From positions 735,031 to 799,030 of the forward strand of contig CAVWZG010000003.1 in assembly GCA_963759415.1 (NCBI GenBank): a stretch of DNA of 64,000 nt. Direction: 5' to 3'. The stretch's first letter is position 1. Every line of letters begins with the position of its first letter. The translations under genes and the position numbers were made by a program. Below are positions 5,806 to 53,676 of the stretch, piece after piece. The notes below the pieces were generated by a model. That model worked only from the letters and a program-made list of their open reading frames with translations, ran no database searches and had not been told where the DNA came from. This stretch comes from an uncultured Verrucomicrobiae bacterium. GTDB lineage: Bacteria; Verrucomicrobiota; Verrucomicrobiia; Limisphaerales; Palsa-1400.

Positions 5806-5892
5806 GCCAAATCTGCCCATAAAATATCCATGCCTTGACCGTGTCTGATTTCCGACTTTCGTGACAGTCTGCCAGATTCCTGCGCCGTGCAT

Positions 5893-6003
5893 AGACGGCT
5901 GAACGGCCTACACCACATTTGAGACCTGAAACCTGAAACTTGAGGCTTGAAAACAAAGCGGTCTGAACGAAAAGCTGAAATTCTGAAAGCTGAAACGCTG
6001 AAA
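5893..6003 (-). promoter_or_regulatory. Conserved upstream motif pair, copy 1 (upstream of RHS gene); function unknown
   Basis: agacggctgaacggcctacac lies at 5893-5913 and gaaattctgaaagctgaaacgctgaaa at 5977-6003. Both recur upstream of the C39-like gene. Motif 1 lies 88-108 nt upstream of the ATG at 5805. Confidence 0.45.
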
Positions 6004-6061
6004 GTCCGAGCCGGACGGGGCAGCGAATTCAAAAGCAGATATTCTGAAAGATGGATTGAAG

Positions 6062-7598
6062 TCACTGCACTGAAGCGCGGAAATATTGGCCGCTCAATGC
6101 CGGACTGATGGTGTTGGTGATCAGGAGCGTTGAACCGGTCACGACATTCGTTTGAATCGGAGACCACTCCTTCAAGTCGGTTGAAACATGAAGGACAACT
6201 TTCTTTCCCGTCGAGAGCCCGGTCAAGGTGGTTTGTAGTTTGCCACCGGCAACCGAACATCCGTCAAAAAAAGGTGCTGGGCTTATACCGCTCGCGTAGA
6301 TAATGCGAACAACCGTGTTCAGATTCGGGTGACCGTAATTGTAGCCAGGCCAATCATATTTCGCACCGGCTCCATTTGGGTTGGGATAAACCGACGCCTT
6401 GTTGCCATACGAGTCATTAAAAACCAGCGTGTGCTGCCCGCTGACATAGCCAATACAAGTGATGTAGTGGCCTGAGGTTGTGATAGACGTCAGGACAACC
6501 ACCGGGTGACCGGCGTCAATTTCCGAACAAATTTTCGCAAATCCGGTTTCTCCAGGAGCGGCATCATCAACGGATGACGTTAATCCGTGGTAGGAAATGT
6601 AATCGCTTAAGCGTTGGCTTCGTTGCAGTGAATTTCCAGGGTTGTCTTGCAAGAAATACCCAAAACCACCGTAAAAGCCAATATCCCACGTGTCCCACGC
6701 CGCAGAAGACGGAATATTGAAAGTGTGCCCGTTGTAGGTGTAGATGCTGGAAACATAGAATCCGTAGTCAGAAATATGCGAGCCGTTGCGCGTGCAAGTG
6801 ATTGGATTTGCGGGCAATTTTCCGGTAATATTGAATTGCCATCAAGGCAGCAACTGCATTGCAACAGTCATTTCCAGCAGTAAAACCATCGGCCGTGTCG
6901 TATAGCTGGTGGATATAGGGCACGCCTGAGAGTTGGACTGTGCCTCCGCCTGATGAATTAACCGTAAAGATGGCTCCGCTGCTGGTCCCGCCGCCGGGGG
7001 TGGGAGTGTAAATGGTGACGGTTGCTGATCCAGCCGGGGCGATGTTGGCGGCGGGAACTTGGGCGGTCAAGGCGGTCACCAAACCGCCAGCGTTCACGGT
7101 TGCGGTTGTTGTCAGGCTGATACCATTCCAGCGCACAACCGAATTTTGAGCGAACGTGCTGCCATTGACCGTCAGGTTGAACGCCCCTCCCCCGGATGAC
7201 GCACTGGATGGCGACAACGACGTGATTACCGGGGCCGGTGCTTGCACACTAAAACCGTAGGTCGAGGAGGTGACACTTCCGGGATTGATGGCTTGGGCCG
7301 TCCAGGTGCAGGCATCCGTGCCAAAAGTCGCGTTAACTTGAAGCTGCGAACTGGTGATATACGTCGTCACCAAGGTGGCATTCCCCGCAGGCGCAACGCC
7401 GACCGGCGGCCAGGCCAATTTCACCTGCGCACCACTGACAAAGCCAGACCCGTAAACGGTGAAAGTCTGTTTGTTGTTTGAACCCGTCACTGGATCCGGG
7501 GATACACTCGTGATGCTGGGCGCTGCCACTGCCGTACAAAAAAAGGAAGAAGACGCCAGGGAGAAAACCAACAGCAACCGAACAATATAAATTGGCAT
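6062..7598 (-). pseudogene. Secreted IPT/TIG-repeat + peptidase C39-like (papain-fold) protein, reading frame broken by a 1-nt shift near 6817-6826
   Basis: Frame A (from ATG 7598) reads MPIYIVRLLLVFSLASSSFFCTAVA (signal), two IPT-like modules, then VPYIHQLYDTADGFTAGNDCCNAVAALMAIQYY (Q...C motif of C39-like peptidases). Frame B (ORF 6062..6817) continues with GKLPANPITCTRNG...SGHYITCIGY...VFNDSYG (His and Asn/Asp region). The switch occurs at tattaccggAAAAttgccc. Confidence 0.6.
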
Positions 7599-7674
7599 TT
7601 TGATTTTGTTTGCTTGAGCGCAGAGAATCATCCCGACTCCCGTGCAATTATTGGCAGATTGCGAGGATTTGAAC

Positions 7675-7743
7675 AGACGGCTGAACGGCCTACACTTTGA
7701 ACCGAAGGGAAAATGGGAAATTCTGAAAGCTGAAGCGCCGAAA
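7675..7743 (-). promoter_or_regulatory. Conserved upstream motif pair, copy 2 (upstream of IPT/C39-like gene); function unknown
   Basis: agacggctgaacggcctacac at 7675-7695 is identical over 21 nt to copy 1. gaaattctgaaagctgaagcgccgaaa lies at 7717-7743. Motif 1 lies 77-97 nt upstream of the ATG at 7598. Confidence 0.45.
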
Positions 7744-7807
7744 TCGGGGTTCGGAGGAGGACGTGGCAGGTAGTTCGGAGATGGGGATGATGAGGGCAGC
7801 CCGTGGC

Positions 7808-8185
7808 TCAGTCTTTCTGGAGGCGGGAGGGCGGGGTGTGCAGGCGGCATCGTCCGGCGCGGTGACGGGGGCAAATGGGCGGTAACACGGCGGTTTCTGA
7901 CAGGGTGAGCGCGACCAGCTGTTCCACAGTCCGCAACACAAGCTCGGTGCGGCTGGTGACGGTGAGTTTCTTAAAAAGCCGATTCAGATGCATGTGGACG
8001 GTGTGGGGCGAAATCTTGAATCGTTCGGCAATGTCCACCTCATGTTTATTGTCAAAGACGCCCTGGACGATCTGGATCTCGCGCTTGGTGATGCCGAGCG
8101 CCTTGGCGATCTCGGACCATGCGTGGTCGCTGAGGATGGCGGCTCCGAGCAATTTCCGCTGTTGAGGTAGTCGGGGTCGCGGCAT
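7808..8185 (-). CDS. LuxR/GerE-type HTH transcriptional regulator
   Basis: ITKREIQIVQGVFDNKHEVDIAERFKISPHTVHMHLNRLFKKLTVTSRTELV matches the GerE-type HTH pattern. Confidence 0.75.
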   Translation of the reverse strand: MPRPRLPQQRKLLGAAILSDHAWSEIAKALGITKREIQIVQGVFDNKHEVDIAERFKISPHTVHMHLNRLFKKLTVTSRTELVLRTVEQLVALTLSETAVLPPICPRHRAGRCRLHTPPSRLQKD

Positions 8186-8212
8186 GGAATTAGGCCAGGT
8201 TGTGCGGGTTGC

Positions 8213-8536
8213 TCATTCGTGTTGCCGGGCGCGCCAGCGGGTGAGTTTGAGGATGCGGCCGAGGCGGATGGCGTAGAGGGCTTTGGCGCCACGGCCCTGG
8301 CGGGGGACCGAGACAGAGCCGGACAGGATGAAGCAGATGTCATTGTCGGAATTCCCTTGTGTGAGAATCTCGCGGTTGGCAGGGAATTCCTGGCGTGTGG
8401 CCGCGGTAGCCAGCGCTTGGGCGACTCGTTGGTCCCCGGCGACTATCTCCTGGCCGCGCAGGGCTTCGATGAAGCGCACCCTTCCGGCACGGCCGGTGAA
8501 GCGCTGTATTAGACCTGGGCTGCTCTTGGTTGCCAT
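8213..8536 (-). CDS. Short cyclic-nucleotide-binding-like domain protein (partial domain)
   Basis: FPANREILTQGNSDNDICFILSGSVSV resembles the beta-barrel start of cNMP-binding domains, and the domain appears incomplete. ATG at 8536 lies 2 nt after the DUF262 gene stop. Confidence 0.4.
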   Translation of the reverse strand: MATKSSPGLIQRFTGRAGRVRFIEALRGQEIVAGDQRVAQALATAATRQEFPANREILTQGNSDNDICFILSGSVSVPRQGRGAKALYAIRLGRILKLTRWRARQHE

Positions 8537-8538
8537 AC

Positions 8539-10392
8539 TCAACTGACGTCAAGGGGCGTGATCTTCCAGACCTCTTTCGCCAGCTCGATTAGCATCGTCT
8601 GGCGTTGGGTAATGGTTTCGCCGGTCCAATCGTCAAACGACGCCAGCTTTTCGTTGATTCGGCTGATGGAGCTGTTGTTGCCGACGGGCGTCAGGGCGGC
8701 GATGCTGCTGGTGAGGTAGTGTTTGCACTTCGCGTATTCCACCTTCTTGGCTGCGAAAAAGTCGTTGCTAGCGACAATGTTGATCGGCTTTTCCAGCAAC
8801 GTCAGATTGCCGAGCCTGATTTTGCAATCTTGATAGGTGGCTTTGGTGTTCTTGGCTGCGAAATCATCAAGGAGGGCCTGCTTTGGATTGTCCGGGAGGA
8901 TGTGCTCGACCTGGAGCCCGGCGTAGTCGGCTAGTGAGCCGGGCACCTTCAGCCCTTTATAGGCCATGTCCACGTGCTGGGTCAACTTGGCCAGCAGGTA
9001 GTGGGTGCGGTACTTCTGCATCGAGTAGAGCGTGTAGCGCTTGAGGGCGTCCGATAGTTCGACATCCTTGGCGGCCATGTTCTTCTGGAAATACTCGGCG
9101 ATGAACGCGTTGAGCCTTTCCTTCTGCTTTGTGGGGTCAACCTCCGCGCCAATGGCCCGCAGGTCGTCGGCCCACAAGGAGAAATTCCGCTCCAAGTCCT
9201 TGGTCGGCGTCTTGGTGAAGATGTAGTAGAAAAGGAAGCTCTCCAACTGGCCGATGAAATGGTCGAACAGGGGTTTTGGAAAGGTGCTCGCGGCGAGGAG
9301 CAGCACGTAATGCAAACTGAAGGCCCCGCCGGTCAGGCGAGCCAAGCTGAGCATGGCCAGATTGGTCTGGCCGTCGTTACCGCGCCCGCCAGCATAGGCC
9401 AGGTAGTGCTCCACGTTGCGGGTGATTTTGCGGACAAACTCAAACGGCTTTTCCGTGTAGCCGCAGAGCTTGGCGTTCTCCTTTTTGGTCAGCCAATCGT
9501 AGATCTCATCCTCGCGGACGACGGCGTCCTTGCGCTCTTCATCGCCCCGTTCGACCTCGATCTTGTAGTTGGCCATCAGGAAATAGCGGAGGAAGCGCAA
9601 CGGCTTTTCCTTGGCCTGCTCCAGCGGCTTGGTGATCTTCTTCCATTCGTCCTTTAGCCGGGTGAACTCGGCGGTGCGGACGTGGGTGAACAGCAGGTTC
9701 TTCAACAGGTCCATCGGGTTCAAGCCGACGCCGCGCTCGTTGATGGTCTCAAATATTTTAAGCGCGCTGCTGACATCCGTCGAGATTTGGATGAAAACGA
9801 CGTTGTTGGCCAGGTAACCCCAGTACTTTCTCAGCGTTCCTTTGGCCTGGTGTGTGTCGCGTAGATGCCGGTACAGCAGGTCGTAGGCGTTCAGGAGGTT
9901 TTCCAGGGACCCAAAACTGGCGATGCCGGCGGCTTGGATGCCGGCGCGGGTCGCCTGCGGGTCGGCGTCCAGCGCGACGATTTTGGCCATGACCTCTCCA
10001 GCGTTCTCGTAGCGGGGCTCAAGCTTGAGATTGGTCCTTGTCTCGCCGTCGGTAGATGTGTAGCTGGTGGAAATCAGACCGGTGATGGTCTGGTGCTGCG
10101 GTTCGTTGCGGAAAAAATGTTGCAGCGCGCACAGGAGGAGGAAAAACGTGGTCAGTCGTTGCTGGCCGTCGATCACCTCAAAATGGTTCTTCTGGTCGGT
10201 GGGGGACACCAACACGGTGCCGATGAAGTATTCTCGACTAGCCCCTCCGTCCAGTTGCTCGTTGATGTCGTCGAGCAACTGCTGCACTTCCTTGTCCGTC
10301 CAGACGAATTCGCGCTGGTAGTCGGGCACAATGTAGAAGCACTCGCGGAACGCTTCCTCGATGCTGTATCTGTAGTTTTCGATTCTGGCCAT
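8539..10392 (-). CDS. DUF262 + DUF1524 protein (GmrSD/BrxU-like type IV restriction enzyme family)
   Basis: N-terminal YIVPDYQREFVW and VIDGQQRLTTFFLL (DUF262/ParB-like DGQQR motif). C-terminal VEHILPDNP...LGNLTLLEKPIN (DUF1524 His-Me finger pattern). Confidence 0.85.
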   Translation of the reverse strand: MARIENYRYSIEEAFRECFYIVPDYQREFVWTDKEVQQLLDDINEQLDGGASREYFIGTVLVSPTDQKNHFEVIDGQQRLTTFFLLLCALQHFFRNEPQHQTITGLISTSYTSTDGETRTNLKLEPRYENAGEVMAKIVALDADPQATRAGIQAAGIASFGSLENLLNAYDLLYRHLRDTHQAKGTLRKYWGYLANNVVFIQISTDVSSALKIFETINERGVGLNPMDLLKNLLFTHVRTAEFTRLKDEWKKITKPLEQAKEKPLRFLRYFLMANYKIEVERGDEERKDAVVREDEIYDWLTKKENAKLCGYTEKPFEFVRKITRNVEHYLAYAGGRGNDGQTNLAMLSLARLTGGAFSLHYVLLLAASTFPKPLFDHFIGQLESFLFYYIFTKTPTKDLERNFSLWADDLRAIGAEVDPTKQKERLNAFIAEYFQKNMAAKDVELSDALKRYTLYSMQKYRTHYLLAKLTQHVDMAYKGLKVPGSLADYAGLQVEHILPDNPKQALLDDFAAKNTKATYQDCKIRLGNLTLLEKPINIVASNDFFAAKKVEYAKCKHYLTSSIAALTPVGNNSSISRINEKLASFDDWTGETITQRQTMLIELAKEVWKITPLDVS

Positions 10393-10429
10393 GGTTTTCT
10401 TTTTTTATTGGCTTAGATGGACGTGCCGC

Positions 10430-11125
10430 TCAGTGGCGCCTCCTGCGCTGCGCGGCCGGAGGTGCGGTCACCGCCTCCTCGAAGGATTTGTTCGCTAACT
10501 GCTCGATCAGGCGAACGAAGGACGGGCAGCACCCAAGTCGTGTAAAACGTGTTGTGCTGGCAGCCCTGAAAATGGCGGGCGTGTCGGTGAACTTTTGGAA
10601 TTCGACGTTGTGGCTGCGGAAGAGCGCATCAAGAACGTCCTCGGGGTAGGGCTCTGACTCTGGGCGTCGGGTCCGTCGGGTCCGCACCCGGACGCCGCCC
10701 CGCACCTTATCTTCGAGGACCGAACGCAAGGCTGCTTCGTCCGCCAGGCACCACGCTTCCAACTCTTGCGGGATGCAAAGGAGCACGATGTTTTCTCTGC
10801 ATACCGACCCATGTTGGGTCGCCTTGAGGCTTTTCCAGATACTGACCGAGTCGATCACACAGTCGCCGTCTCGGTAGCGTTTGGTTCTAGCTTGCTGCCT
10901 CCAAGCGACTTCGGCGGGGTGCCAGTCCCACATAATGAAGACCCGGTCGCAGCCCTGGTCGAAGAGGCGGGTGGCGTCACTCGCAGCGTTCTTAAGGAGA
11001 AGGCCTTTGTTGCCCTGCGGAAGGACTATGAATTGATCGCGAGGACAGAAACACTGCATGAGCGACCTGACCGCCTGGTGCTCCGGTCCCTGCAGGGTGG
11101 ATTCAACGATAAAGCCGATTTTCAT
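10430..11125 (-). CDS. DUF4276-like protein (putative TOPRIM/OLD-like nuclease partner of the upstream ATPase)
   Basis: N-terminal KIGFIVES..GPEH acidic motif and IPQELEAWCLADEAAL, which I recall as the DUF4276 signature. ATGA start/stop overlap with the ATPase gene. Confidence 0.65.
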   Translation of the reverse strand: MKIGFIVESTLQGPEHQAVRSLMQCFCPRDQFIVLPQGNKGLLLKNAASDATRLFDQGCDRVFIMWDWHPAEVAWRQQARTKRYRDGDCVIDSVSIWKSLKATQHGSVCRENIVLLCIPQELEAWCLADEAALRSVLEDKVRGGVRVRTRRTRRPESEPYPEDVLDALFRSHNVEFQKFTDTPAIFRAASTTRFTRLGCCPSFVRLIEQLANKSFEEAVTAPPAAQRRRRH

Positions 11126-12297
11126 TTCTGCGTCCCCAGAAGGCCCTTCTTGTACATGTCTCCCAAACTAAATGACTTGGCCCAATTTCGCAGCTCTTTC
11201 GAGTCGCCTGGACGATGAAAGGCGGGCTCGCCTGAAGCGTTACGCTCCACCGTTATGACGTGCTCCAAGAGGACCTGGTCCAGGAGATAGGGAGAATGGG
11301 TCGTGGCGATGATTTGGCTTCGGCCAGACTTCACCGCGCGACGTATCTCGTCCAGGAGCAGCCCGATCGTTCGCGGATCCAAGCCGTTCTCAATTTCCTC
11401 GATCACTATTAGGGGGGATGGAGTCGGATGCCGCAGGACTGCCAGCAGGGCCGCGGCGCGCAGTGTGCCGCTCGATAGCAGCCAGCCTGGAACCTTGAAA
11501 TCCTTCTCCACCATGGACAGGTGGACGGTGCGCTCCAGTTCGGAGGTGACCTCTGGTTGCAGATCGCGCGCGTACGGCAATACGAATTTCAGTGCCTCAA
11601 CAATGCCGGCAAAGGCTGCCTCGTCGAGATTTCGCAGGTGGTGCAGATACTCTCCGATACCCGAACCGTCTTCTTCCAAAACGGTGGCCGTCTTGGCCAA
11701 CCGTTGCGGCCTCGGCAAACCCATTTGGCCTGGGGAGAGGGAGAGGAACTGCCATCTGACGATTACCTTCGTGATGCCATCGGCCAGGAGTGATACGTCC
11801 GCGGGCAAGGGCGTCTGGAAGGGTAGATTGTCCTCGCCCCATGTTACCTTCCCCTGCTTACGGATAAGATGCGCCTCATTGGCCACGTTGACCTCCTCGG
11901 AATCCAGCCGCAGGTCGTTAAAGCCGCGATTGTCCCGAACTTCTGTTTTGGACTCGAAGGCGTGCCCTCTTACTTCTCCAGTCAGCTCAAAGCTCATGGG
12001 TTGTTCCCAGTCGAGGTCGTCGCCCTCCTTCGGTTTGAGCTGTTCGCTTTTGTGAAAAACGTGCTGGAAACCCTTCCAGCGCCGCATCGCTTGATCGAGG
12101 CCCACCGTAGCGATGTCGTTCAGTGTTTGTAACCCTTCAACCAGGCTGCTTTTTCCACTTCCGTTGTTGCCGACGAAGACAGTGAACGGCGTGAATTGAA
12201 CAACACCGCTGTCATGGATCGCCTTGAAGTTGCGGAGCCTGAAAGAGTTGATGAACCATTTTGGCTGTCCGTCTTTAGGTGCGGGGCGGGATTTCAT
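11122..12297 (-). CDS. ABC-type AAA ATPase (AAA_21/AAA_15-like)
   Basis: Walker A FVGNNGSGKSSLVEGL. Walker B/D-loop LIVIEEIENGLDP. ATTHSP switch. ATGA overlap with the methyltransferase stop. Confidence 0.85.
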   Translation of the reverse strand: MKSRPAPKDGQPKWFINSFRLRNFKAIHDSGVVQFTPFTVFVGNNGSGKSSLVEGLQTLNDIATVGLDQAMRRWKGFQHVFHKSEQLKPKEGDDLDWEQPMSFELTGEVRGHAFESKTEVRDNRGFNDLRLDSEEVNVANEAHLIRKQGKVTWGEDNLPFQTPLPADVSLLADGITKVIVRWQFLSLSPGQMGLPRPQRLAKTATVLEEDGSGIGEYLHHLRNLDEAAFAGIVEALKFVLPYARDLQPEVTSELERTVHLSMVEKDFKVPGWLLSSGTLRAAALLAVLRHPTPSPLIVIEEIENGLDPRTIGLLLDEIRRAVKSGRSQIIATTHSPYLLDQVLLEHVITVERNASGEPAFHRPGDSKELRNWAKSFSLGDMYKKGLLGTQK

Positions 12298-15200
12298 TTG
12301 ATGAGTCCTAGTTGAACGTCACGAAAGGCATTTCGAGTAGCCACTTTTACGGGTTCGGGAACAAGGGGAAAAGTATTAAGGATGTGCGTGAACTCGGACT
12401 CGGTGAGGCCGTAAAGGTGGGCGATGAGGCCGTCTAGCTCGGCCCGGAGGCGGGCGCGGGCGGCGGCGTCCGTGACGCCCTTTACGGCGGCAGGCAGTTT
12501 GAGCGCGGTGCTGACTTCCTTGGCCAGCGCGTCAAATTCCGGCGCGGTGCAAGTCAACTGCGTCGCCCGCTGGACGATCGGGCGAAACGCGGCGTCCGTC
12601 GCCGCCAGGCGGGGAACCGAAAGCTGGTAGAGGAAAAAGCTGTTTAGGTTTGTCGTCATCTTCGCGCGAAGCGAGTAATCAACGACGAAGCTGTTCAGCA
12701 ATGCCGTTAGAAGCACGAGTTCAGCGGCGGAGAATCGGTGTTGGGCGTAGCGTGCTTTGTCGTGATGAAATGGAAAGTGGACTGCCAGCGAATTGCCGGT
12801 CACCGAGCCTGGCGGAATAATTGCCACGATAAGTGTCCGCTCGTTGGTGTTGGAAGCGATTTTCCGCAAGGCTAGGCGAAACGTTTCGTAATCATTACGC
12901 ATGTCCTTCGGAACGGCGTTAAGTCCTTCGGTGCGCTTAACCCTTTTCTCGAGGAACGATTCGCGGATGTCCCGTTCGGTAATCCAGTATTGCGGCTTTG
13001 CATACTGGTGGTCGAACTGCCAAATCATGCCTCCTTCGTAGAGGAGCGTCTTTGTCGGCTTCGTCTTGAAAAGATGCGAAGCGCGATTCATGTGAAGCTC
13101 CTCGCCGTAGATTTCGAGCCCCCAACCCTTCTCGCTATCGCTGAGAAACGGAAACTTGAGGAGCTTCTCGGCGATCTCGATGTCCATCTGTGTTTTGAAC
13201 TCGGGGACTGACAATGAATCGGGTGAGAGCTTCTGAACCAAGGCAAGCGGGATGTGGAGCGAGTGGCTGTTTGGAAATGCATTCAACTCGGCCACGTCGT
13301 GCCTCATGAACGCGGCGGGAAAATCGCTGGTCTGCCCGCCTTTCTCAAAGGTTAGGACGACGAACTTGAAGCTGCGGTGAACGCCCTCGAAGACTTCGTT
13401 GCGATTCTCAAAGCAGAAGAGCCCTTCGACGGCAGTTTTGGCGAACAGCATTTGACGGAGTTGTTTTGCGCCCAAGTCGGTGTAGACGCCGCTTGGAATC
13501 ACGATGCCGCACTGTCCGCCGTTCTTGAGCAAATTGAACGACTGCTCAAGGAACACTTTGTAGAGATTCACGTCGGCGCCGACTTTTCTGCCATTCACCT
13601 CGGACGTTTGATTCGGGAACTGTCTGGCCTTACGGAAATAGACGATCTGGTGCGGGAACTGGCTCTTGTATTCGAGCCAGGCGTCGCAAACGTCGGTGTC
13701 CCGCAGCAACTTCGCTTGCTCTTCCTCGAAATCATGGATGGTCATCTTCTTCTTGGTGACCAGGTCAGAGTATCTGGAGCAGAATTCTTTTGCCTGCGGT
13801 TTGAATATCTCCCAGGGCGGATTCGTGATGATGCCGTCGAAGCCCCCTTCGGCGAGGACTTTGTCAAACTCGTAGGCCCAGTGAAGAGGAATGAGCGCCT
13901 GAATATCGGATATCTTGAGGGCGCGTTTCTCAGACTCGCCCTCCTCACCGGCTGCTTTAGCCCAGGTTGCTTGTTCGAATTGGATGCCGAGGGCTTTAAA
14001 TTCGTCCAGGAGCATCTGATTCAGGCGGTCGTAGGATTCCCGGCGGACGTTCTCAATGTCGCTGCGGAGTTGGATGAGCGCCACTTCCTGCGTGACCGCA
14101 TCGCGGTCGTGACGCTCGAAAGCGTGTTTTCGATAGAGCTCAATGGACTTGTTCTTATGTTCCAAGATGGCGGCGAATCGCGCGGCGTGTTGTTGGGAGA
14201 CGAACGCGGTGGCTTTTTCCTCCTTGGTCGGCGCGGTTTTGGTCTCGACCGTGAAACCGAGGTCGCTGCTGTGTTGAAGTGTCAGCCTTTCCTGAGCGCC
14301 GCCGCTCTTCTGCTGCCCGGCATCGAACTTAGCCGGGTCAATGCGGAGCAAGCCGATGAGCGAGTTGCCGGCGAGGATATTGAAGTCAATGTTCGGCAGC
14401 GGCTCAAGCTGGTCTTCGGTTTGTGCGGAGGCGACGAGCGCGAGGAAAAGGCGCAGGCGGGCGATTTCACTGCCTTCCTCCATGATGTCCACGCCGAAGA
14501 GATTGTTCGTGATAATTTGCTTCTTGATGAAGTAGAGGACAGACGGGTGCTCGGCCTGGGTCTGCTTGTGCCACTTCGCGAGTTCCACGTCGTTCAGGAA
14601 TTGAATCTTGCCGATGACGGCGGAGTAAATGGCGATGAGCACCTTCATGGCGGCGACAAGGAACGCGCCGGAGCCGCACGCGGGATCGAGCAGGCGCAGC
14701 GATGGCAGGATCTCGAACAGGAGCGCCCTGCAAAGGTTGGCGTCCAGGTTTAGCAGGAGGTCGGAGATGGTGGCGAAGCGGCGGTTGAGCGCCTTATTCA
14801 CACGGTTGAGGACGAGCTTGTAGATGGTGCGCTCGCACAGGTAGCCGGTCATTTCGTGCCGGGTGTAGTAGGCGCCGAATTCCTTTTGGTTGATGTACTT
14901 CTCGAAGATGTAGCCGAGGACATCGGGATTGATCTCATGGTCGTCGCCCCCGGGCGTGTCGTTGAGATTCCAAGAGTAGCGACTGAACAGCGCGAAAATG
15001 TTTTCGAACGCGACATCGGGGATTTTGATGCGCTGCTTGTCGGGGAAGCCATGGTTGAGCTCGACGCGGTGCGGCAGGAACAGGCCGCCGTTCAGGTAGC
15101 GGATTTTACCGAGCAGTGCGCGGGCAGCCGGGCTGCGGGCGAGCTCCGGCTGGGCGAAGCCTTCGAAGAACAGCGATTTGAGGAAGCCAGAGTAAAATGT

Positions 15201-15911
15201 ATCCGCGCCGCGCTTTTTAGATGCGGCGAGTTTGTTGGTGAGGTAATCGCGATCCGCGCCGTCGAGGAAGCCTTTGCGCTGGAGGAACCAGATGAACATG
15301 AGGCGGTTCATTAGCACGGACGCATACCAGCGGCGCTGGTGGTCGTCGTTGATGCCCTGGATGTGTTCGACGAACGCGAGGCGCTGGGTGTCAAACTCGC
15401 CGTAGAACTTTTTGGTGACGCGTTCGACATCGAGCGCGGCTTTGAGGCGACCGGCGACTTCGGTGACGGGGATGTTGCCCTCGGCGTCGAGTTCGCTGAT
15501 GTCCACGACCATCGCGGCGAGCTTGCTCAAGAACAGGTCGCCGGGCTGGCCTTTGACGTAGAGGTGATCGCGGGCATGGGTCTTGCCGGCCTCGCGTTTG
15601 ACCCAGTACCAGAGGCTTTGGGTGCGGGCGGCGTCGAGGAAGATGAGGAGGTTTTCAACGTGCTCCTCGGCTACGTGCTTTTGGATGGCGGCGCGGGCCT
15701 TTGCGTCCGGGATGCCGTTGCCGGTGGTGACTTCAAAGACAACCACACCGGCCAACTGCGCAATGGGTGTCCGGGTGTATGGCGTTTCTTTGACCTGGGC
15801 CTTGATCGGGTTGCGCGACTTGGGGTTCGACCAGCCGAGTTCGTCAATGAACAGGCGCGCAAACTCGAATTTTTGGAGACGGTCGCGAGTGGTGGCGATG
15901 TTGAGCGGCAT
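12294..15911 (-). CDS. Large (1205 aa) N6-adenine DNA methyltransferase, Eco57I/PglX/DrmMI-like, with N- and C-terminal extra domains
   Basis: Motif I LLDPACGSGAFLVAAM. Motif IV GIITNPPWEIFKP. LAGNSLIGL. N-terminal FARLFIDELGWSNP. No obvious nuclease motif seen. Confidence 0.85.
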   Translation of the reverse strand: MPLNIATTRDRLQKFEFARLFIDELGWSNPKSRNPIKAQVKETPYTRTPIAQLAGVVVFEVTTGNGIPDAKARAAIQKHVAEEHVENLLIFLDAARTQSLWYWVKREAGKTHARDHLYVKGQPGDLFLSKLAAMVVDISELDAEGNIPVTEVAGRLKAALDVERVTKKFYGEFDTQRLAFVEHIQGINDDHQRRWYASVLMNRLMFIWFLQRKGFLDGADRDYLTNKLAASKKRGADTFYSGFLKSLFFEGFAQPELARSPAARALLGKIRYLNGGLFLPHRVELNHGFPDKQRIKIPDVAFENIFALFSRYSWNLNDTPGGDDHEINPDVLGYIFEKYINQKEFGAYYTRHEMTGYLCERTIYKLVLNRVNKALNRRFATISDLLLNLDANLCRALLFEILPSLRLLDPACGSGAFLVAAMKVLIAIYSAVIGKIQFLNDVELAKWHKQTQAEHPSVLYFIKKQIITNNLFGVDIMEEGSEIARLRLFLALVASAQTEDQLEPLPNIDFNILAGNSLIGLLRIDPAKFDAGQQKSGGAQERLTLQHSSDLGFTVETKTAPTKEEKATAFVSQQHAARFAAILEHKNKSIELYRKHAFERHDRDAVTQEVALIQLRSDIENVRRESYDRLNQMLLDEFKALGIQFEQATWAKAAGEEGESEKRALKISDIQALIPLHWAYEFDKVLAEGGFDGIITNPPWEIFKPQAKEFCSRYSDLVTKKKMTIHDFEEEQAKLLRDTDVCDAWLEYKSQFPHQIVYFRKARQFPNQTSEVNGRKVGADVNLYKVFLEQSFNLLKNGGQCGIVIPSGVYTDLGAKQLRQMLFAKTAVEGLFCFENRNEVFEGVHRSFKFVVLTFEKGGQTSDFPAAFMRHDVAELNAFPNSHSLHIPLALVQKLSPDSLSVPEFKTQMDIEIAEKLLKFPFLSDSEKGWGLEIYGEELHMNRASHLFKTKPTKTLLYEGGMIWQFDHQYAKPQYWITERDIRESFLEKRVKRTEGLNAVPKDMRNDYETFRLALRKIASNTNERTLIVAIIPPGSVTGNSLAVHFPFHHDKARYAQHRFSAAELVLLTALLNSFVVDYSLRAKMTTNLNSFFLYQLSVPRLAATDAAFRPIVQRATQLTCTAPEFDALAKEVSTALKLPAAVKGVTDAAARARLRAELDGLIAHLYGLTESEFTHILNTFPLVPEPVKVATRNAFRDVQLGLIK

Positions 15912-15913
15912 GG

Positions 15914-18900
15914 TCAGGGATTTCTAATTCCGAGGGAACAGATGATGCGCGGCTCGCGGGTTTCGGTGTCGTCCTCGTGGACGCACAGACGGTCTTCTTC
16001 GTGGAGCGCGAGAACCAGGTCAGCCAGCTTGTTGTTGCTGACGCCTGTGCGCAGCTCGCGGGCCAGCGTTTCGCGCGCCGATTCCTGCAATGGGCGGGCG
16101 AAGATAGCCTCGATGGCCCGAGTCAGGAGTTTGGTGTCGAACAGCGTGTCGCGCATGGACTCAGCATAGTCTTTCAAGTGCTCGTACACGCGGCGGCGGG
16201 CACTGGTGGGACGGCCAAGCGCGCCGCCTTCGGTGCGTTGTTCGGCGGCGACCAACTCGACGCCGACGCGGACCAGCGCGTGATGCTTTTCGAGCCGGGG
16301 CAAGCCGGGCGTTTCCGGATCACAAGCGGCGGCACGAAGAATCTCGTGCTGCGATTCCGTGACCGTGCGGCCTTCCTCGTCCACCCATGCCAGCGCGTCA
16401 TTGTCGTCGGCGGTGCGAACATAGACCATGACGCCCGTGGCGGCGGTTTTGCCCGGCGCGACCGGCACGGCGGAGAGCGGCTTGGTGGCGAAAATGACGT
16501 TGGGCAGGTCGGGCACGGTCTTTTTAAGCGCCGGGTTGAGGTCGGTGGCGTTCTTCCAAATCTGGTAAGCTTGCGAGGCGAGGTCCACTTCGTTGTCGTC
16601 GGGGTCGTCAAGCACGCCGGATTTTTCGGTGAAGAGATCAAGAATGGTGGGGTCGTGCTTTTCGTCTTCGAAAAAGGTTTCGTCCGTGCCGACAACCTCG
16701 GCGTTTTCGTGCAACCGTTGGCGGACGCGCGAGCGCAACCGGATGAGGCGCTCGACACCGTCGGCAGGCAGGAAGGAGTAGCAGAGGATTTCCTCAGAGC
16801 GCTGGCCGATACGGTCCACGCGGCCAGCGCGCTGGATGAGGCGGATGATGGCCCAGGGCAGGTCGTAGTTTACGACGATGGCGGCGTCCTGGAGATTCTG
16901 GCCTTCGCTCAGAACATCGGTGGCGACGAGAAGGCGTAATTCTTCGGTAGCAGAAATTTTCTCGCGGCAGCGGTTGCTGTTGGGGCTGAACCGCCGCGCA
17001 TACTCGGACGGGTCGTCATTGTCACCAGTTACGGCGGCAAGTTCTTTCACGCCGCGTTTCCGCAACTCCGCGTTGAGGTATTCCACGGTATCTGCGAACT
17101 GGCTAAAGATCAGGATCTTGTCCTTCGGATGCTTTCTGGTAATGAGTTTGTGAAGCTCGGCGAGTTTGGTGTCCGTGTCGGGCTGCCAATGGCCGGAAAG
17201 CGTGAGGATCGAGAAAAGGCGGTCAATATCGTGTTGCAGGTGCTTGGCAAGGTCCGCGACGAACAAGCCCGGACGGAGCCAATCGAAGCGGTTGCTGTAA
17301 TGGCGGGTCAGGAAGTCGTAGCCGGCGACGGCTTGCTTCCGAAAATCGTCGAGGGATGTGCAACCCGCGAGGTTCAGTGTGTGGTTGGTGTGGTCTGTGC
17401 CGCCGTCGAAAAAATCGCCGGGCGTAGTCGTGGTGTCGCCGTCCGCGTCGTCGCCGCGAGTGTCGAAGAGCGCGGCGTCCTGGGTGCCAATGGGCAGCGG
17501 CTGCCCGGACTCGATGGCGTGGAGGTAAAGGTAGTTGCGGAGGATGTGGCGCTGGATGGATTGGAGGAAAGCAGAGCCGCTGCTTTCCAGCCGCTTGAAA
17601 AGGTTGGTGCGACAGAAGCCGATCAGCCGTTTGCCGGCGCGGGACAGGTTTTGGAGGACTTCGGCTTCCTCCTGGGTCGGCGGGTGGTCGAGCGTGGGAT
17701 GCACGTAGTTTGCCAGCCCGTAGCGGGGTAGATGCAACACACGGATGGTGTCCACCACCTTGTCAGAGTAGAGGCGGGCGTATTGGTCGTCCGGGTCTTT
17801 GTCGCGGATGCGAAAGGCGAGCGTGCGCGGTTTGCGTTTGGGGAAATAGAATTTGGTGCCGTCCTCCAAGAGGAGGAAGGCGCGGCCCTGCGCGGGCTTG
17901 TGTCCGTTGCAAGACGGGCACTGAGTTTGCCGCGCGAGGATGGGACTGCGGCACTGGGGGCAATCGGTGGTCGCGTAGTTTTTTTGAATGAACGAGCGCG
18001 TGCGGCGAACCATGAACAGGCGCATGAGTTCGCGCCAGTCGTCGGCGTGTTCGCTTTTCTCGAACGCGGCGAGACAATTCACCGGGCACTGATGTTTCTT
18101 GGTGAATTCCTCGACGCGGTTGTCGCAATCGCGGCGGATGTATTCCTCGGGCCGCAAGCCCAAAGCCTGCTCGGGGTCCAGGAAGAGGCGGATCTGATTC
18201 GCCAGGTCGAGGTAGGCTTTGTTATAGGGCGTGGCTGACAGTAGAATGCAGCGGGAGTCGTTGCGCTGGATGTAGTCGCGGACGACAGCGTAGGTCTTGC
18301 CCTCGCGATTGCGGAGATTGTGGCTTTCGTCGAGAAGCACAATGCGATAGCGGCGCAAATCGGGAAGCTGGTTGCGCGCCTGCGACAGCGGCACGATTTT
18401 GGCCAGCAAGCGAAAGCGGGCGGCGTGGTCCTCCCACATGCCGACAAGGTTCTTGGGGCAGAGGATGAGGGTTTCCAGCGAGTGCGGCGGGTCCTGGAAC
18501 ACGCGAGAAAGAGCGGTCGCCATGAGGGTTTTGCCGAGGCCGACCACGTCGCCGATGATGACACCGCCGCGTTTCTCCAAGTGGCGGGCGGCGATCTTCA
18601 CGGCGGCGGACTGGAAGTCGAAAAGCGTGTCGCGAAAATCTGAGGGGATGGAAAACTCGGACAGGCCGGCCCGGGCTTCCTCGGCCAGGTGGTAGGCCAT
18701 CTTCACGTATATCAGATATGGCGCAATGATGTCCGGGCGCGCCCAGCTTTCTGCGATGACCTGGATCAGTTCCTGCGTGATGTCGAGGCACCAGCGGTCG
18801 GCCCAACGGTCTTCGAACCACTTGGCCAATTTCGCGGTGGCGTCGTGGTCGAGGACGTCCACGTTCAATTCGCCCTGCTGGGAGAGGCCGGCGAAGGTGA

Positions 18901-19387
18901 GGTTGCTGCTGCCGACGTAGCCGACGCGCGGGTTGTTGAAATCGTTGCGGAAGCAAAGGTAGAGCTTGGCATGAAGGGTGTGGCGGAGAAAAAGTTTCAC
19001 GGCCAGTTTGCCGGACTCCATTTGGGCGGCGAGGCGGCGCAATCCAGTTTCGTCAGCGTCGTTCGGGGCGCCCATCGCGAGCTGATTCCGGAATTCCTCG
19101 GCGAGCTTGCGCTTGAGGCGGATGGCGGTCTGGTTGTCCATCGGCTCGTCGGCGCGGACCAGGCTGAGGCACTGGCGGAGTTCGTCGGCTGGAAGGCGTT
19201 GCATGCCGACGAGGAGGCGGCACTGGTGGTCCGGGCCGCCGGACCATTGGTCGATGCGCGAGTCGATAGACTTCCAGCCGCGCAGATTGAAGTAGCCAAC
19301 GCAAAAGTCCGCGCGCTCGGAGACGAGGAGGGTCTGCTCAAGGGCTGGGAGCAGGGTGGTGTCAATGTTGTCGAAGATGCGGGGCAT
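15914..19387 (-). CDS. PLD(HKD) nuclease - SNF2 family helicase fusion protein
   Basis: Single HKD motif LHAKLYLCF...[14 protein letters not shown] near the N-terminus. Helicase motif [12 protein letters not shown], motif [13 protein letters not shown], motif [20 protein letters not shown]...CPSCNGH zinc-ribbon insert. Confidence 0.9.
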
Positions 19388-19399
19388 CTGGTTAGATCC

Positions 19400-19585
19400 T
19401 TATGTATCCTTCTGACCGGCTGTGCCCTTCTTTACCCATGTGTCAACCTCTGACGCCAGGAATTTCCAGAGGCGGCCGACTTTGTGACCGGGCATTTTCT
19501 TGCGCTCGATCCATTTGTAGATCGTGTCGCGGTTGACGCCCAAGTGGGCGGCGATTTCTTCGACTGACAACCAGCGCTCTTGCAT
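19400..19585 (-). CDS. Excisionase/MerR-type helix-turn-helix DNA-binding protein (possible operon controller)
   Basis: LSVEEIAAHLGVNRDTIYKWIERKKMPGHKVGRLWKF is a typical HTH_17/excisionase-family pattern. The stop lies 12 nt before the helicase ATG. Confidence 0.75.
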   Translation of the reverse strand: MQERWLSVEEIAAHLGVNRDTIYKWIERKKMPGHKVGRLWKFLASEVDTWVKKGTAGQKDT

Positions 19586-20157
19586 AAAGGTGTTTCAGGT
19601 TTATCCGCGTCGGAGTCATTTCCGGTGCGGCGAGCCTTCGGGCAGCATTGTAGGAACTCTGTCCGATAGCGCCAGAGAAAAACGATGAAAAGCCGATTGA
19701 GACTGGTTCTTAATTGGCTGAGGCGGAGGGGGGCGTCTACGCGTGATCGCAAAGTGCGAGGGGGTGGACAACGTGCCCCCTCGCGTCCTTTTCCCCCTGT
19801 GGCCCCACCCGCCCCGGCCTTGGGGCCGGGGAGAGCCAGGGCGAAGACCTCTTGGGTTCGTGGAAGGGGTCGAGCATTGGGGATGGGTGGGCCTGGGTCG
19901 CGAGTAGAAGAAATCCCCGACTGGCGCCGGGGAGGTCTGACTTATGCGGCCACCTGTTCGGCGGTGCCCATGCGGGAGTTACAGGTAATTCTCGGACGAT
20001 CCCGGAGCGTTGACAAAGGGCAAGTCAATCGGCCAAATTCATCGTAATGGACACGATTTCGGGCTCGAATTTAGAGGATGTTATTTCTGCAATTTTGCTT
20101 GCACTCAGAGCGAAAAAGAGCGAAAATCGTTTTTAGTAAATCGCACGTTCAATTACA

Positions 20158-20221
20158 GATGAACACAGATAAAGACTCTGGCCGGTCGTCTGCTCCTCAT
20201 CTGTGTCGATCTGTGTTCATC
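20158..20221. repeat. REP-like inverted repeat (13-bp perfect arms)
   Basis: gatgaacacagat (20158-20170) and atctgtgttcatc (20209-20221) are exact reverse complements. An extra atctgtgt copy sits inside. Confidence 0.7.
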
Positions 20222-20285
20222 CGTGGCCTCCCTTTCTTTCTTTTCCGGTGGGGAGACTTTGTCGCACTGTGAGCTTATCCGGGGC

Positions 20286-20323: not shown

Positions 20324-20437
20324 ACCAGATCGGGCCGAAGTTTCCTCCAGGATACGAGCTACCCGGCAGCATAAAGTATTGGTTGGAAAATCTTGCAAAG
20401 AGCCGGAATTAGCTCAAAATCAACTGTAGAGTTATCT

Positions 20438-21325
20438 ATGAGTTCAGCGTCTATTCGATCCCGCCGTGAATTCCTGAAGCAGACGGTTATCCTCGGGGCC
20501 GCCATGACCGCCGCGCAGTCGGCTGATGAACTGCTGGCGGCTCCGCTGGCCCTAAACGAGCTGCCCAAGATCAAGCTTGGCAGCTTGGAGGTTTCCCGGC
20601 TCATTCTCGGCAGCAATCCGTTTTGGGGCTTTGCGCATGGCAATCCCCAGGCCACCGCGGAAGAAATGACGGCCTACTACACCGACGCGCAGGTCATGAG
20701 AGTGCTCGAGGCCGCGGCCGAACAGGGCATCACGGCGGTGTGGACTCCGCCCCATGATCGCTGGGTTCGACTGTGGGACAAATACCGGGAGGGCGGTGGC
20801 AAGCTGAAAACCTGGATCGGCCAGCCTGACGTGCGGCCCGACCAGATGAAACAGCACATCATCACGGCAGCGAAGAACGGCGCGACGGCGGTCTGCATTC
20901 AGGGCATACAGGCAGACGCCCAGATGGAGACGGGGCAACTGGACGTGCTGCGGGGCTGGCTGGAACTGATCAAGAGTTTCGGCCTGCCGGCGGGCATGGC
21001 CACACACAGGGCCAGAACTCACTTGGTGGCCGAAGAGAAAGGGCTGCCGACGGACTTCTATCATCAGACGCTCTACCGCCCGGATCATTACGTTCGGGAA
21101 GGGCTTGAAGAATCGCTGGCCACGATCGAAAAGCTCGACAAGCCGGTGATCGCCTACAAGGCGCTGGGGGCCGGCCGCTTCCTGCCCAAGGATACGCTGC
21201 CCTACATTTTCAAGCGGCTCAGGCCCAAGGACGGCCTGTGCATCGGCGCCTTCCCGAAGAAGCGAGACGAACTGGCGGAGAACGCCGAGCTAACGCGGCG
21301 TCTGTCGAAAAACGGAACCGCCTGA
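20438..21325 (+). CDS. Tat-signal hypothetical protein (possible TIM-barrel enzyme)
   Basis: MSSASIRSRREFLKQTVILGAAMTAAQS twin-arginine signal from ATG 20438. I do not recognise a family for the remainder. Confidence 0.55.
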   Translation: MSSASIRSRREFLKQTVILGAAMTAAQSADELLAAPLALNELPKIKLGSLEVSRLILGSNPFWGFAHGNPQATAEEMTAYYTDAQVMRVLEAAAEQGITAVWTPPHDRWVRLWDKYREGGGKLKTWIGQPDVRPDQMKQHIITAAKNGATAVCIQGIQADAQMETGQLDVLRGWLELIKSFGLPAGMATHRARTHLVAEEKGLPTDFYHQTLYRPDHYVREGLEESLATIEKLDKPVIAYKALGAGRFLPKDTLPYIFKRLRPKDGLCIGAFPKKRDELAENAELTRRLSKNGTA

Positions 21326-21484
21326 GAAGCGTTCCGCCTCTTGCCTCCGGTTTTTGTAATCCGAAGGAGCATCCACAAAGTTGTGACGCATCAAAGGGAA
21401 GGGCGGCGCGAGACGCACCGCCCGGCGACCGGGACGGTCGCGCTCCCCCTGAAGAGGAGATACGGTCAAGACTTTATCCCAGGA

Positions 21485-21522
21485 AATCGAGTCAAGGCTC
21501 GACAGAGTCTCGCCCTACCGAG
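21485..21522 (+). repeat. 38-nt dispersed repeat, copy 2 (aatcgagtcaaggctcgacagagtctcgccctaccgag)
   Basis: Matches 20286-20323. Weaker similarity extends about 12 nt upstream (ttatcc..gg). Confidence 0.75.
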
Positions 21523-21603
21523 CATCGGATGTCCAACAACTTTAACAACACCCAGGACTGGCGGCAGGGTTGAACTTTGGCCGCGTTTGATCCATGCTGC
21601 GTC

Positions 21604-28013: not shown

Positions 28014-28145
28014 AATTCGTTAATATTTAATTGGAGGCAGACCACAACGCATTGGAAACTCGCGCCGCCATTTCGTTGATGCCACCGGCCATGATACTGA
28101 TGTTCGACGGTGACGACGACAGGATTAGTCATTAATTCTCAGGGC

Positions 28146-28669: not shown

Positions 28670-28673
28670 CCTT

Positions 28674-51970: not shown

Positions 51971-51977
51971 GGGTGGT

Positions 51978-53432: not shown

Positions 53433-53571
53433 ATAATGCGGGCTTGAAGATACAAAACGCCTCATTTTTGGCAACAAGAGAATAAGGCGATGAAAAGAGA
53501 CAGGCGCGGGACAAGATACTTCACGTCGCTGGTAGGTAGGGCGGCGCTGCGTCGCCGCCCAAGAGTTTCAG

Positions 53572-53593
53572 GGCAGAGCGGCAGCGCTGCCCT
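53572..53593. repeat. REP-like hairpin motif GGCAGAGCGGCAGCGCTGCCCT, copy b (next to a second GC hairpin 53539-53560)
   Basis: gggcag...ctgccc stem. The adjacent hairpin is gggcggcg-ctgcgt-cgccgccc. Confidence 0.8.
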
Positions 53594-53676
53594 ACCGGGA
53601 ACGACAAGTCTTACATAATAGTTGTTGCCTTACTTTTTGTCTTGTGGCATACTTTTCCAGAAATGACGCACAAAAC

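Follow-up and report, generated by a model that had tools for sequence, protein, structure and literature searches.

What kind of defence is encoded by the seven closely packed genes at positions 8213-19585 of a 64,000-nucleotide stretch of DNA from an uncultured Verrucomicrobiae bacterium (contig CAVWZG010000003.1; this whole stretch is called the window here), and do these genes make up one system or several? The preliminary description of the window saw a tightly coupled defence operon that matched no described system and that could be either one integrated multi-effector system or three stacked systems under a single helix-turn-helix (HTH) controller. The explanation that we favour, with moderate confidence, is a mosaic defence operon in which a core restriction pair (a PLD(HKD)-SNF2 helicase-nuclease and an N6-adenine methyltransferase) is joined by an accessory pair (an ABC ATPase and a DUF4276 protein) and by a cargo slot, which in the window holds a GmrSD-type enzyme. 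The seven-gene "system" dissolves into a conserved module, ordinary cargo and what is probably a pseudogene. The seven open reading frames (ORFs), with protein lengths in amino acids (aa), are the following:

19400-19585, minus strand: HTH gene, 61 aa
15914-19387, minus strand: PLD(HKD)-SNF2 helicase gene, 1157 aa
12294-15911, minus strand: methyltransferase gene, 1205 aa
11122-12297, minus strand: ABC ATPase gene, 391 aa
10430-11125, minus strand: DUF4276 gene, 231 aa
8539-10392, minus strand: GmrSD gene, 617 aa
8213-8536, minus strand: ORF7, 107 aa, counted from an ATG at 8536 (the mechanical ORF list puts the start at a TTG at 8542)

The ORF list of the window and a reading of the junctions on the minus strand returned these genes and their spacing exactly as first described. 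The HTH and helicase genes are separated by TAA, 12 nucleotides (nt) and ATG, and the helicase and methyltransferase genes by TGA-CC-ATG; the methyltransferase overlaps the ATPase gene, and the ATPase overlaps the DUF4276 gene, in an ATGA. Between the DUF4276 and GmrSD genes lies the sole sizeable gap of the operon (TGA, 37 A-rich nt, ATG), and the GmrSD gene is followed by ORF7 in the form TGA-GT-ATG. The domains that had been predicted for all seven proteins were each recovered in Pfam, PADLOC and NCBIfam scans, and the catalytic motifs of the helicase-nuclease, the methyltransferase, the ATPase and the GmrSD protein are intact.

The helicase carries PLDc_2 (residues 114-195) and RE_NgoFVII domains followed by SNF2-rel_dom and Helicase_C, and matches the PADLOC "HKD+Snf2" model C3a139 at 3.2e-49. 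It belongs to a family of more than 8000 homologous protein clusters, with 70% identity across phyla. GTDB species representatives alone hold at least 596 loci of this family (55-90% identity), which are spread over Verrucomicrobiota, Nitrospirota, Planctomycetota, Proteobacteria, Desulfobacterota, Acidobacteriota, Chloroflexota, Cyanobacteria, Firmicutes and others. Thirty plasmids carry the helicase; no phage records carrying it were found. A CxxC...CxxC pair at residues 476-493, inserted in the SNF2 core and near-invariant in the family, is probably a zinc ribbon.

Throughout this family the helicase travels with the methyltransferase. From a species-level sample with one genome per GTDB species, 80 helicase-anchored loci were fetched (L001-L080); as with the other co-occurrence counts given here, the figures are uncorrected for phylogeny and include some near-duplicate contigs. 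A methyltransferase of about 1100-1400 aa lies 3' of the helicase in 60 of the 80 loci by ORF call, sometimes with one to three small genes between the two, and in 15 more it runs off the contig end and was detected by tblastn. Small genes embedded between helicase and methyltransferase in family loci, the plasmid locus described below included, are VapBC, KilA-N, ORF6N and a YhcG nuclease. The two genes are found together in about 75 of 76 informative loci, L017 being the sole negative. Nucleotide homology between the window and its closest relatives L001, L162 and L166, whose helicases are 89-90% identical to that of the window, extends exactly from the start of the helicase to the end of the methyltransferase (19387 to about 12350) and then stops. 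By this pattern the helicase and the methyltransferase form an obligate pair and the real core of the operon, and the window has the arrangement of this unnamed pair: an HKD-SNF2 protein followed immediately by a methyltransferase with a family-specific N-terminal domain of about 370 aa, which is 43% identical across the family.

The methyltransferase itself matches Eco57I (1.2e-20) and MmeI_Mtase (9.6e-10) in Pfam, with the motifs DPACGSGAF at residue 409 and NPPW at residue 697. Its N-terminal ~520 aa are conserved family-wide at 43-46% identity to the window protein, and its C-terminal half can be aligned only within a subfamily of nine of 49 sequences, to which the window protein belongs. 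The 288 residues between motif I and motif IV (409-697) compare with about 250 aa in the distant ATPase-preceding methyltransferases of L095, L099 and L117, and with 109 residues in the MADS-like locus L122 described below. The N-terminal domain, at about 380 aa, is encoded as a separate ORF in P0253, P0257, P0292, L046:13351-16614 and L060:13382-16004, on contigs of up to 2.3 Mb, which represents either a split gene or a natural two-chain variant. Sequence searches of the PDB returned nothing beyond generic SF2 and methyltransferase matches.

The N-terminal domain is where the reading of the core pair meets its first rival, namely that the methyltransferase is a self-contained type IIG enzyme whose N-terminal domain is the nuclease, with the PLD-SNF2 protein as a separate, linked defence or repair factor. 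The PADLOC model REase_MTase_IIG (PDLC03628) matches residues 1-384 at 5.7e-117, one homologue is named "type IIG restriction enzyme/methyltransferase" in UniRef, homologues show weak MmeI_hel similarity, and the first 120 residues of the AlphaFold model (mean pLDDT, the predicted local distance difference test score, of 80) have an alpha/beta layout. Methyltransferase motifs and a long C-terminal region are likewise present. On the other hand, the PLD-SNF2 gene is a neighbour in practically every informative locus (about 75 of 76), no D...(D/E)xK pattern of the PD-(D/E)xK kind shows up among the invariant columns of the domain, and Foldseek searches of the PDB gave no match below E = 0.03 and no nuclease match. 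The existence of the domain as a separate ORF fits a docking module as well. A self-contained type IIG enzyme is thus improbable; the domain is likely a docking surface for the helicase, because it is conserved family-wide, is sometimes a separate ORF and bears no nuclease signature.

A member of the family with a published methylation motif is found on plasmid pSYSX of Synechocystis PCC 6803, where a small ORF precedes the gene of a "helicase-related protein" (49% identity with the window helicase), which is followed by an embedded VapBC pair and then by an 1100-aa DNA methyltransferase. This methyltransferase, slr6050, is M.Ssp6803IV, to which GA(m6A)GGC (GAAGGC) has been assigned; its knock-out never segregated, which the authors read as essentiality (PMC6105098). 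We infer that non-segregation would be expected if the neighbouring helicase-nuclease restricts unmethylated host DNA; for the family as a whole this knock-out is indirect functional evidence, and the only evidence of that kind that we found. Beside the pair, pSYSX (L081) also has, at 51619-54240, an operon for ubiquitin-like conjugation, of a bacterial type that has been associated with defence; it encodes a ThiF-like E1, an E2/UBC protein, a multiubiquitin protein and a DUF6527 protein.

Many relatives of the core pair have a third gene that the window does not. A DprA-like gene of about 210 aa (Pfam DNA_processg_A; PADLOC PsyrA 3e-22) lies 3' of the methyltransferase in 30 of the 47 helicase-anchored loci with at least 8 kb of downstream sequence, for instance L018:16714-17349 and L010:10323-10973; its distance varies, with cargo genes between it and the methyltransferase. 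A hidden Markov model of 27 family members found no DprA/PsyrA-like gene in a six-frame translation of the window at E <= 10. The DprA-like gene seems rarer in loci with the ATPase/Toprim pair described next (four of 28, compared with 28 of 44), in a comparison biased by unequal downstream lengths and near-duplicate loci. As a lead only, the family may fall into two subtypes that are told apart by which of the two, DprA-like gene or ATPase/Toprim pair, they carry. A literature search for the combination of PLD-SNF2, methyltransferase and DprA as a system found no description, although absence from the literature searched does not prove that there is none.

The fourth and fifth genes of the window make up the accessory pair. 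The ATPase, of the SMC/OLD-like ABC type, matches AAA_21 (1.8e-26), AAA_15 and SMC_N in Pfam and, over its full length, HEC-01A (4.9e-46) and mad3 (6.7e-27) in PADLOC; it contains GNNGSGKS, LSSGT, VIEEIE and TTHS, with Walker A, Walker B, signature and H-loop motifs all present. Its neighbour scores 27.8 bits (3.7e-06) on Pfam DUF4276, against a cutoff of 30.2 that a 41.5%-identical homologue in L166 passes, and matches PADLOC HEC-01B at 2e-07 over residues 110-211. E8, D67, E123 and D129 are conserved in it, unlike the second aspartate of the DxD motif. It is a predicted metal-dependent nuclease partner of the ATPase from the Toprim superfamily.

The position of this pair is far from random. 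Metagenomic relatives of the ATPase were retrieved with an alignment as the query, an earlier single-sequence query having found nothing, and 27 of them with at least 900 nt of upstream sequence were used to count adjacency. An N6-methyltransferase gene lies directly 5' of the ATPase in 21 of the 27. In 18 this is a homologue of the window methyltransferase, 13 of them full-length at 46-56% identity and five from a more distant helicase/methyltransferase family; in the other three it is another N6-methyltransferase with DPACG.G/NPP[YF] motifs. The upstream methyltransferases belong to at least three families and usually overlap the ATPase gene by 4 nt. Where at least 4.6 kb of upstream sequence was available, methyltransferase and PLD-SNF2 are both present in 13 of 16 loci. 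Of 39 related loci, 30 have a DUF4276 gene next after the ATPase. Look-ups of Pfam-annotated long contigs gave the order helicase-methyltransferase-ATPase in three of four cases and a stand-alone ATPase-DUF4276 pair in one. Contigs with 89-90% identical helicases carry the same four genes (PLD-SNF2, methyltransferase, ATPase, DUF4276), and in L172 they form a bare four-gene island inside housekeeping DNA. Thus, of the gene order first described, genes 2-5 recur, and do so far more often than random defence-island neighbours would, whereas genes 6-7 do not exceed that level and the seven-gene unit does not recur among the 80 helicase-anchored loci.

Several points weigh against the mosaic reading. 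The function given to the PLD-SNF2 family is drawn from homology and analogy, and the co-occurrence counts carry the phylogenetic and duplicate-contig bias mentioned above. A nuclease role for the methyltransferase N-terminal domain is possible given the strong PADLOC type IIG match, and its docking role is predicted, the model having found no PDB counterpart in Foldseek despite a pLDDT of 80. The nuclease activity of the DUF4276 protein is uncertain because its clade lacks the second Asp of the Toprim DxD. The remaining points concern the independence of the accessory pair, and they are also what speaks for a second rival, that three independent systems (a restriction-modification (RM)-like helicase/methyltransferase, an autonomous HEC-01 and GmrSD) are stacked in one transcription unit with co-expression as their sole link. 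Beside helicases that are 89-90% identical, the ATPase is only 36-40% and the DUF4276 protein 25-41% identical to that of the window, and L001 has three genes without a family match in place of the pair; because alleles are swapped or replaced in this way, the pair is exchangeable and could be an autonomous embedded system. L120 and L173 (9001-10760) carry the pair alone, and in L171:1822-9004 the helicase and methyltransferase are fragmented beside an intact ATPase and DUF4276 gene, so the pair can outlive or leave the core. The ATPase clade with DUF4276 occurs in only three of 51 species-representative loci (L010, L020 and L039, where it overlaps the methyltransferase stop codon). HEC-01 is listed as a stand-alone candidate in PADLOC, whose models label the parts of the window locus separately, as a type IIG methyltransferase, HEC-01A/B and HEC-06/Orf5.

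Nevertheless, mere stacking is unlikely to account for this arrangement. Against it stands the placement of 21 of 27 ATPase relatives directly after an N6-methyltransferase gene, in most cases overlapping it by 4 nt, although these methyltransferases come from three or more families. Among species representatives the pair is, moreover, restricted to one methyltransferase subfamily, where it is found in three of the nine members that share the C-terminal half of the window protein and in none of the 40 others. The homologous pair is genetically required in MADS, and HEC-01 gave no protection when tested alone. We take the ATPase/DUF4276 pair to be an accessory with a preference for a methyltransferase, with which it probably cooperates.

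What follows the accessory pair is of a different nature. The GmrSD protein passes the Pfam cutoffs for GmrSD_N (9.7e-40, 137 bits) and GmrSD_C (1.1e-18, 68 bits) and has a DGQQR motif at residue 75 and the His-Me motif EHILP at residue 496. No clear homologue of it exists in the 80 helicase-anchored loci, the only trace being a marginal phmmer fragment (E = 3.6e-5) at the end of L058, and other, unrelated GmrSD-family proteins occupy the same position only in L001 and L109. If this position, the cargo slot, is taken as the one after DUF4276, or after the methyltransferase in loci without the pair, its occupants are:

Window: GmrSD protein (PADLOC Orf5 9.7e-85, HEC-06 7.6e-69)
L001: BrxU/HEC-05 (2e-237)
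L109: another GmrSD_N protein, overlapping DUF4276 by 4 nt
L099: EVE-McrB and McrC
L095: DarT and Macro
L162: a complete Lamassu (LmuA/C/B)
L120: another AAA_15/21 ATPase
Other loci: DUF4209, DUF6697

The type IV enzymes in the slot differ (HEC-06-like, BrxU/HEC-05, another GmrSD_N protein and McrBC), which argues for independent acquisitions, and the window GmrSD, a predicted type IV modification-dependent nuclease, is by this pattern independently acquired cargo. The embedding of defence genes in operons is a pattern described by Payne et al., and the variation of the slot matches it.

The last gene of the operon, ORF7, had been taken for a short cNMP-binding-like (cyclic nucleotide-binding) protein. 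There is indeed a weak Pfam cNMP_binding match, yet ORF7 is not a small stand-alone protein and corresponds to the 5' fragment of a larger gene. Residues 11-82 match positions 1-71 of the 288 in the PADLOC PycTIR profile (1.7e-17), and in a HMMER search of 1.84 billion representatives all 277 matches cover only residues ~1-85, many full-length ones being 300-311 aa long; three full-length homologues combine cNMP_binding with a CAP12/Pycsar TIR domain. In ORF7 the cNMP-binding domain is cut off midway, and the last ~25 residues are without homology. No continuation was found in another frame, the overlapping ORF having no family match, and no cyclase was found near it among the scanned ORFs. 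Because only the first ~85 residues of a ~305-aa effector are present, ORF7 is a truncated 5' remnant, probably non-functional, of a gene for a Pycsar-type cNMP-binding TIR effector. ORF7 and the LuxR-type ORF that follows it share one reading frame (7808-8542), split by TGA and 27 nt; their interpretation as one interrupted gene was rejected, as the homologues of ORF7 are cNMP-binding TIR proteins and the homology ends 25 residues before the stop; the shared frame looks coincidental.

At the other end of the operon, the HTH protein matches Pfam HTH_17 (excisionase type, 3.8e-16) and PADLOC mad1 (9.5e-14) and is borderline on the NCBIfam model MADS1 (MAD1), with 78.6 bits against a cutoff of 80. 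A 63%-identical homologue stands directly 5' of the helicase in L110, which repeats five of the window genes. Across the helicase-anchored loci an excisionase-type HTH precedes the helicase in seven of 74, and in the close relatives L162-L165 an XRE-type HTH_3 takes its place. The HTH protein, of the small excisionase/MerR type, is likely a transcriptional controller, variable and not part of the core.

These observations bear on a third possibility, that the whole set of seven works as a single integrated multi-effector system governed by the HTH protein. Tight spacing and the two ATGA overlaps speak in its favour, as does the recurrence of type IV enzymes at the end of the operon in the window, L001, L109 and L099. 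The recurring enzymes, however, come from different families, the window GmrSD has no clear homologue in the 80 related loci, ORF7 is a truncated pseudogene by the evidence above, the HTH family is not conserved, and four-gene versions stand alone. Comparative genomics contradicts full integration, which is highly improbable; the evidence falls between the two options originally offered, with a recurrent module of four or five genes and no seven-gene integration.

How does the mosaic operon relate to systems that already have a name? Profile scans bear out that this is a defence operon, that it is not DISARM, BREX or type I RM, and that no named system covers the whole locus. Among the ORFs scanned, from 34 to 22839, DrmA/DrmB, PglZ/BrxC/BrxL and HsdR have no PADLOC or Pfam match, and membership of DISARM, BREX, type I RM, PARIS and Pycsar was rejected on profile scores and missing core genes. 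The 1140-aa ORF at 2321-5743 was considered as a missing large ATPase and rejected, as it belongs to no Pfam or PADLOC family. The likeness to DISARM and PARIS that had been pointed out is real for shared domains and goes no further. SNF2 helicase, PLD nuclease and N6-adenine methyltransferase domains are common to DISARM class 1 and the window, but DrmB and DUF1998 are absent from the seven proteins and ten neighbours, where DrmA finds only a generic Helicase_C match; the DrmD model NF038317 scores 117.1 bits against a cutoff of 610, over residues 722-878 (Helicase_C) only, and the PLD domain, in DISARM a protein of its own (DrmC), is here part of the helicase. OLD, PARIS and Gabija are more distant and have the logic of an ABC ATPase with a Toprim in common with the window, which lacks the fused OLD architecture; the AriA models of PARIS match partially (residues 257-340, or the N-terminus), and the partner is DUF4276, with no AriB/DUF4435. 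Pycsar differs in that there is no PycC cyclase among the scanned ORFs and the effector is cut at about residue 85 of ~305, without its TIR domain.

Closer analogues are mad1-mad4 of MADS, HEC-01, HEC-06 and the methyltransferases called "type IIG" in the style of REBASE. MADS (mad1-mad8; Maestri et al., bioRxiv 10.1101/2023.03.30.534895 / Cell Host Microbe 2024) has in mad1-mad4 the order HTH-methyltransferase-ATPase-DUF4276 in common with the window and, by analogy, would also share methylation-based self/non-self discrimination; Mad4 is a DUF4276 protein classed as Toprim (PMC12065111). In MADS, defence is weakened when any one of mad2-4 or mad6-8 is deleted and changes little without mad1; deletion of mad5 is possible only if mad2 or mad3 is removed as well. 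MAD6, MAD7 and MAD8 are mandatory genes in the authors' MacSyFinder model (bioRxiv 10.1101/2023.03.30.534895). The window, unlike MADS, has a PLD-SNF2 gene between HTH and methyltransferase. MAD5-MAD8 were absent in a PADLOC scan of the flanks (2321-8343 and 20393-22839), PADLOC-DB having mads models, and the window methyltransferase scores 34 bits on MAD2 against a cutoff of 720 and the ATPase 107.9 on NCBIfam MADS3 (MAD3) against 420. Because mad5-8 are missing and the MAD2 and MAD3 scores lie far below their cutoffs, the window is not MADS and shares only the mad1-4 layout. L122:680-12287, found at 29% ATPase identity, looks like MADS itself, with a 706-aa N6-methyltransferase, an ATPase, DUF4276, an HsdS-like 480-aa protein and then proteins of 1396 and 618 aa.

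Hma, or BREX-related type 2 (Payne et al. 2021/2024; PMC12839542), was considered for its N-terminal HKD fused to an SNF2 helicase together with an N6-methyltransferase and for the HEC-01/HEC-06 matches; in its operons the helicase-nuclease and the methyltransferase are read as RM-like effector and modifier, and HEC-01-type pairs and GmrSD are often hosted. It was rejected, as Pfam finds neither the DUF499 ATPase (HmaC) nor DUF3780 in the locus and its flanks, none was seen in L162-L173, and the HmaA profile matches only residues 744-863 (Helicase_C) of the window helicase. The window methyltransferase, moreover, is Eco57I/MmeI-like, and more than half of the window's helicase family has the DprA/PsyrA-like third gene. 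With type ISP/III and IIG/IIL enzymes (MmeI, Eco57I) and BREX PglX the window shares a gamma-class methyltransferase with a built-in recognition region, the use of an SF2 translocase-nuclease for restriction and, probably, an asymmetric hemimethylated site (GAAGGC in the Synechocystis homologue). Its nuclease, though, is a single-HKD PLD, not PD-(D/E)xK or Mrr, its helicase is of the SNF2 type and a separate polypeptide, and no nuclease is recognised in the methyltransferase. Like HEC-01, the window has an ABC ATPase gene adjacent to a Toprim gene, here with an ATGA overlap; it differs from HEC-01 in that its pair, as in most relatives, overlaps the stop codon of an N6-methyltransferase, and in its degenerate DxD motif. 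The GmrSD/BrxU/SspE/HEC-06 group resembles the window enzyme in its DUF262 DGQQR and DUF1524 His-Me motifs and in its location in or next to a methylation-based system, which is also where BrxU of BREX is found; the window enzyme itself is not BrxU, its best models being Orf5 and HEC-06.

How might the operon work? The biochemical steps proposed here are modelled on homology and on analogy with slr6050, MADS, single-HKD nucleases, OLD-family nucleases and BrxU; gene content, intact motifs, and conservation and co-occurrence patterns were observed directly. A small HTH gene of an interchangeable family at the 5' end would act as a replaceable controller. The methyltransferase, using its own recognition region, would methylate adenine in a short, probably asymmetric motif of the host DNA, and the PLD(HKD)-SNF2 protein, likely docked by the N-terminal ~370-aa methyltransferase domain, would translocate on unmethylated DNA and cut it, which would make restriction by the pair ATP-dependent. 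Single-HKD nucleases act as dimers. With one HKD motif per chain, the active site would lie between two chains, and cleavage would therefore come from dimerised or colliding translocases. The ATPase/Toprim pair, coupled to the methyltransferase, would most likely serve as a second nuclease/effector or as a guard of the methylation module. The mad2-mad3-mad4 genes of MADS are arranged alike, and defence by MADS depends on its ATPase and DUF4276 genes. GmrSD would act autonomously on hypermodified phage DNA that escapes methylation-based restriction; the logic would be that of BrxU in BREX, a modification-dependent nuclease directed at phages that get past such restriction.

The surroundings do not extend the defence locus. 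Because a LuxR/GerE regulator (7808-8185), a TIG-domain protein (6768-7874) and a C39-like peptidase come next, ORF7 is taken as the end of the operon; these genes and the 1140-aa protein (2321-5743) lie 3' of it. On the 5' side are a divergent gene without a family match and a glucose/sorbosone dehydrogenase, and farther out are PL8 polysaccharide lyases, ComEC and alanine dehydrogenase. The sole PADLOC match among the flanking ORFs (2321-8343, 20393-22839) is a weak CARF match of the LuxR-type ORF (E = 2.4e-4). No tRNA gene, no integrase among the scanned ORFs and no convincing flanking repeats were found around the operon, and its GC content is that of the flanks. With such neighbours, no tRNA gene and an unremarkable GC content, the locus is an isolated operon within housekeeping DNA and not part of a large defence island. 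A scan for promoters and terminators gave counts at or below the shuffled expectation, which is uninformative on transcription units.

Three features of the flanks may be recorded in addition. A ~90-nt element occurs in two copies (5863-6064 and 7652-7743), a GAAA..CTGAAA-rich stretch followed by CAGACGGCTGAACGGCCTACAC; the copies precede the minus-strand genes at 2321-5743 (1140 aa) and 6768-7874 (TIG-domain), and these genes, which lie near the LuxR/GerE gene at 7808-8185, may have the element in common as a regulatory leader. A 16-nt inverted repeat at 20155-20224 (94% complementary, 38-nt spacer), located in the intergenic region of ~800 nt 5' of the operon, could be an operator or could terminate the divergent gene. 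Two paralogous genes for family-8 polysaccharide lyases lie in tandem (23406-25643 and 25662-28013) and are followed by a ComEC-type competence gene (28110-31091) on the opposite strand.

Much in this locus is familiar: the domains, HKD helicase-nucleases that act in an RM-like manner, embedded defences, ABC-Toprim pairs and type IV back-ups are all known, and the GmrSD enzyme and the dead Pycsar fragment are ordinary on their own. The slot that holds the cargo is an example of defence embedding, with four different type IV enzymes, DarTG and Lamassu at one position. The helicase/methyltransferase family is large and, as far as we could find, without a name or a mechanism. PADLOC profiles split the locus into a type IIG methyltransferase, HEC-01 and HEC-06/Orf5, and running PADLOC would probably hide the pairing rule because its profiles label the parts separately; in the literature searched, neither the helicase/methyltransferase family as a system nor the regular position of this ATPase-Toprim clade directly after an N6-methyltransferase was found described. 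The order N6-methyltransferase-ATPase-Toprim is not confined to this family: MADS and a second helicase/methyltransferase family have it too. We tentatively speculate, as a conceivable rather than an established step beyond the mosaic reading, that the locus may belong to a widespread, unnamed defence family of two subtypes, in which N6-methyltransferase, ATPase and Toprim would form a portable, non-autonomous cassette whose ATPase/Toprim pair reads or guards the methylation module. The ATPase-Toprim pair after an N6-methyltransferase links the locus to MADS, and suggests a shared principle by which methylation systems are coupled to OLD-like nucleases.

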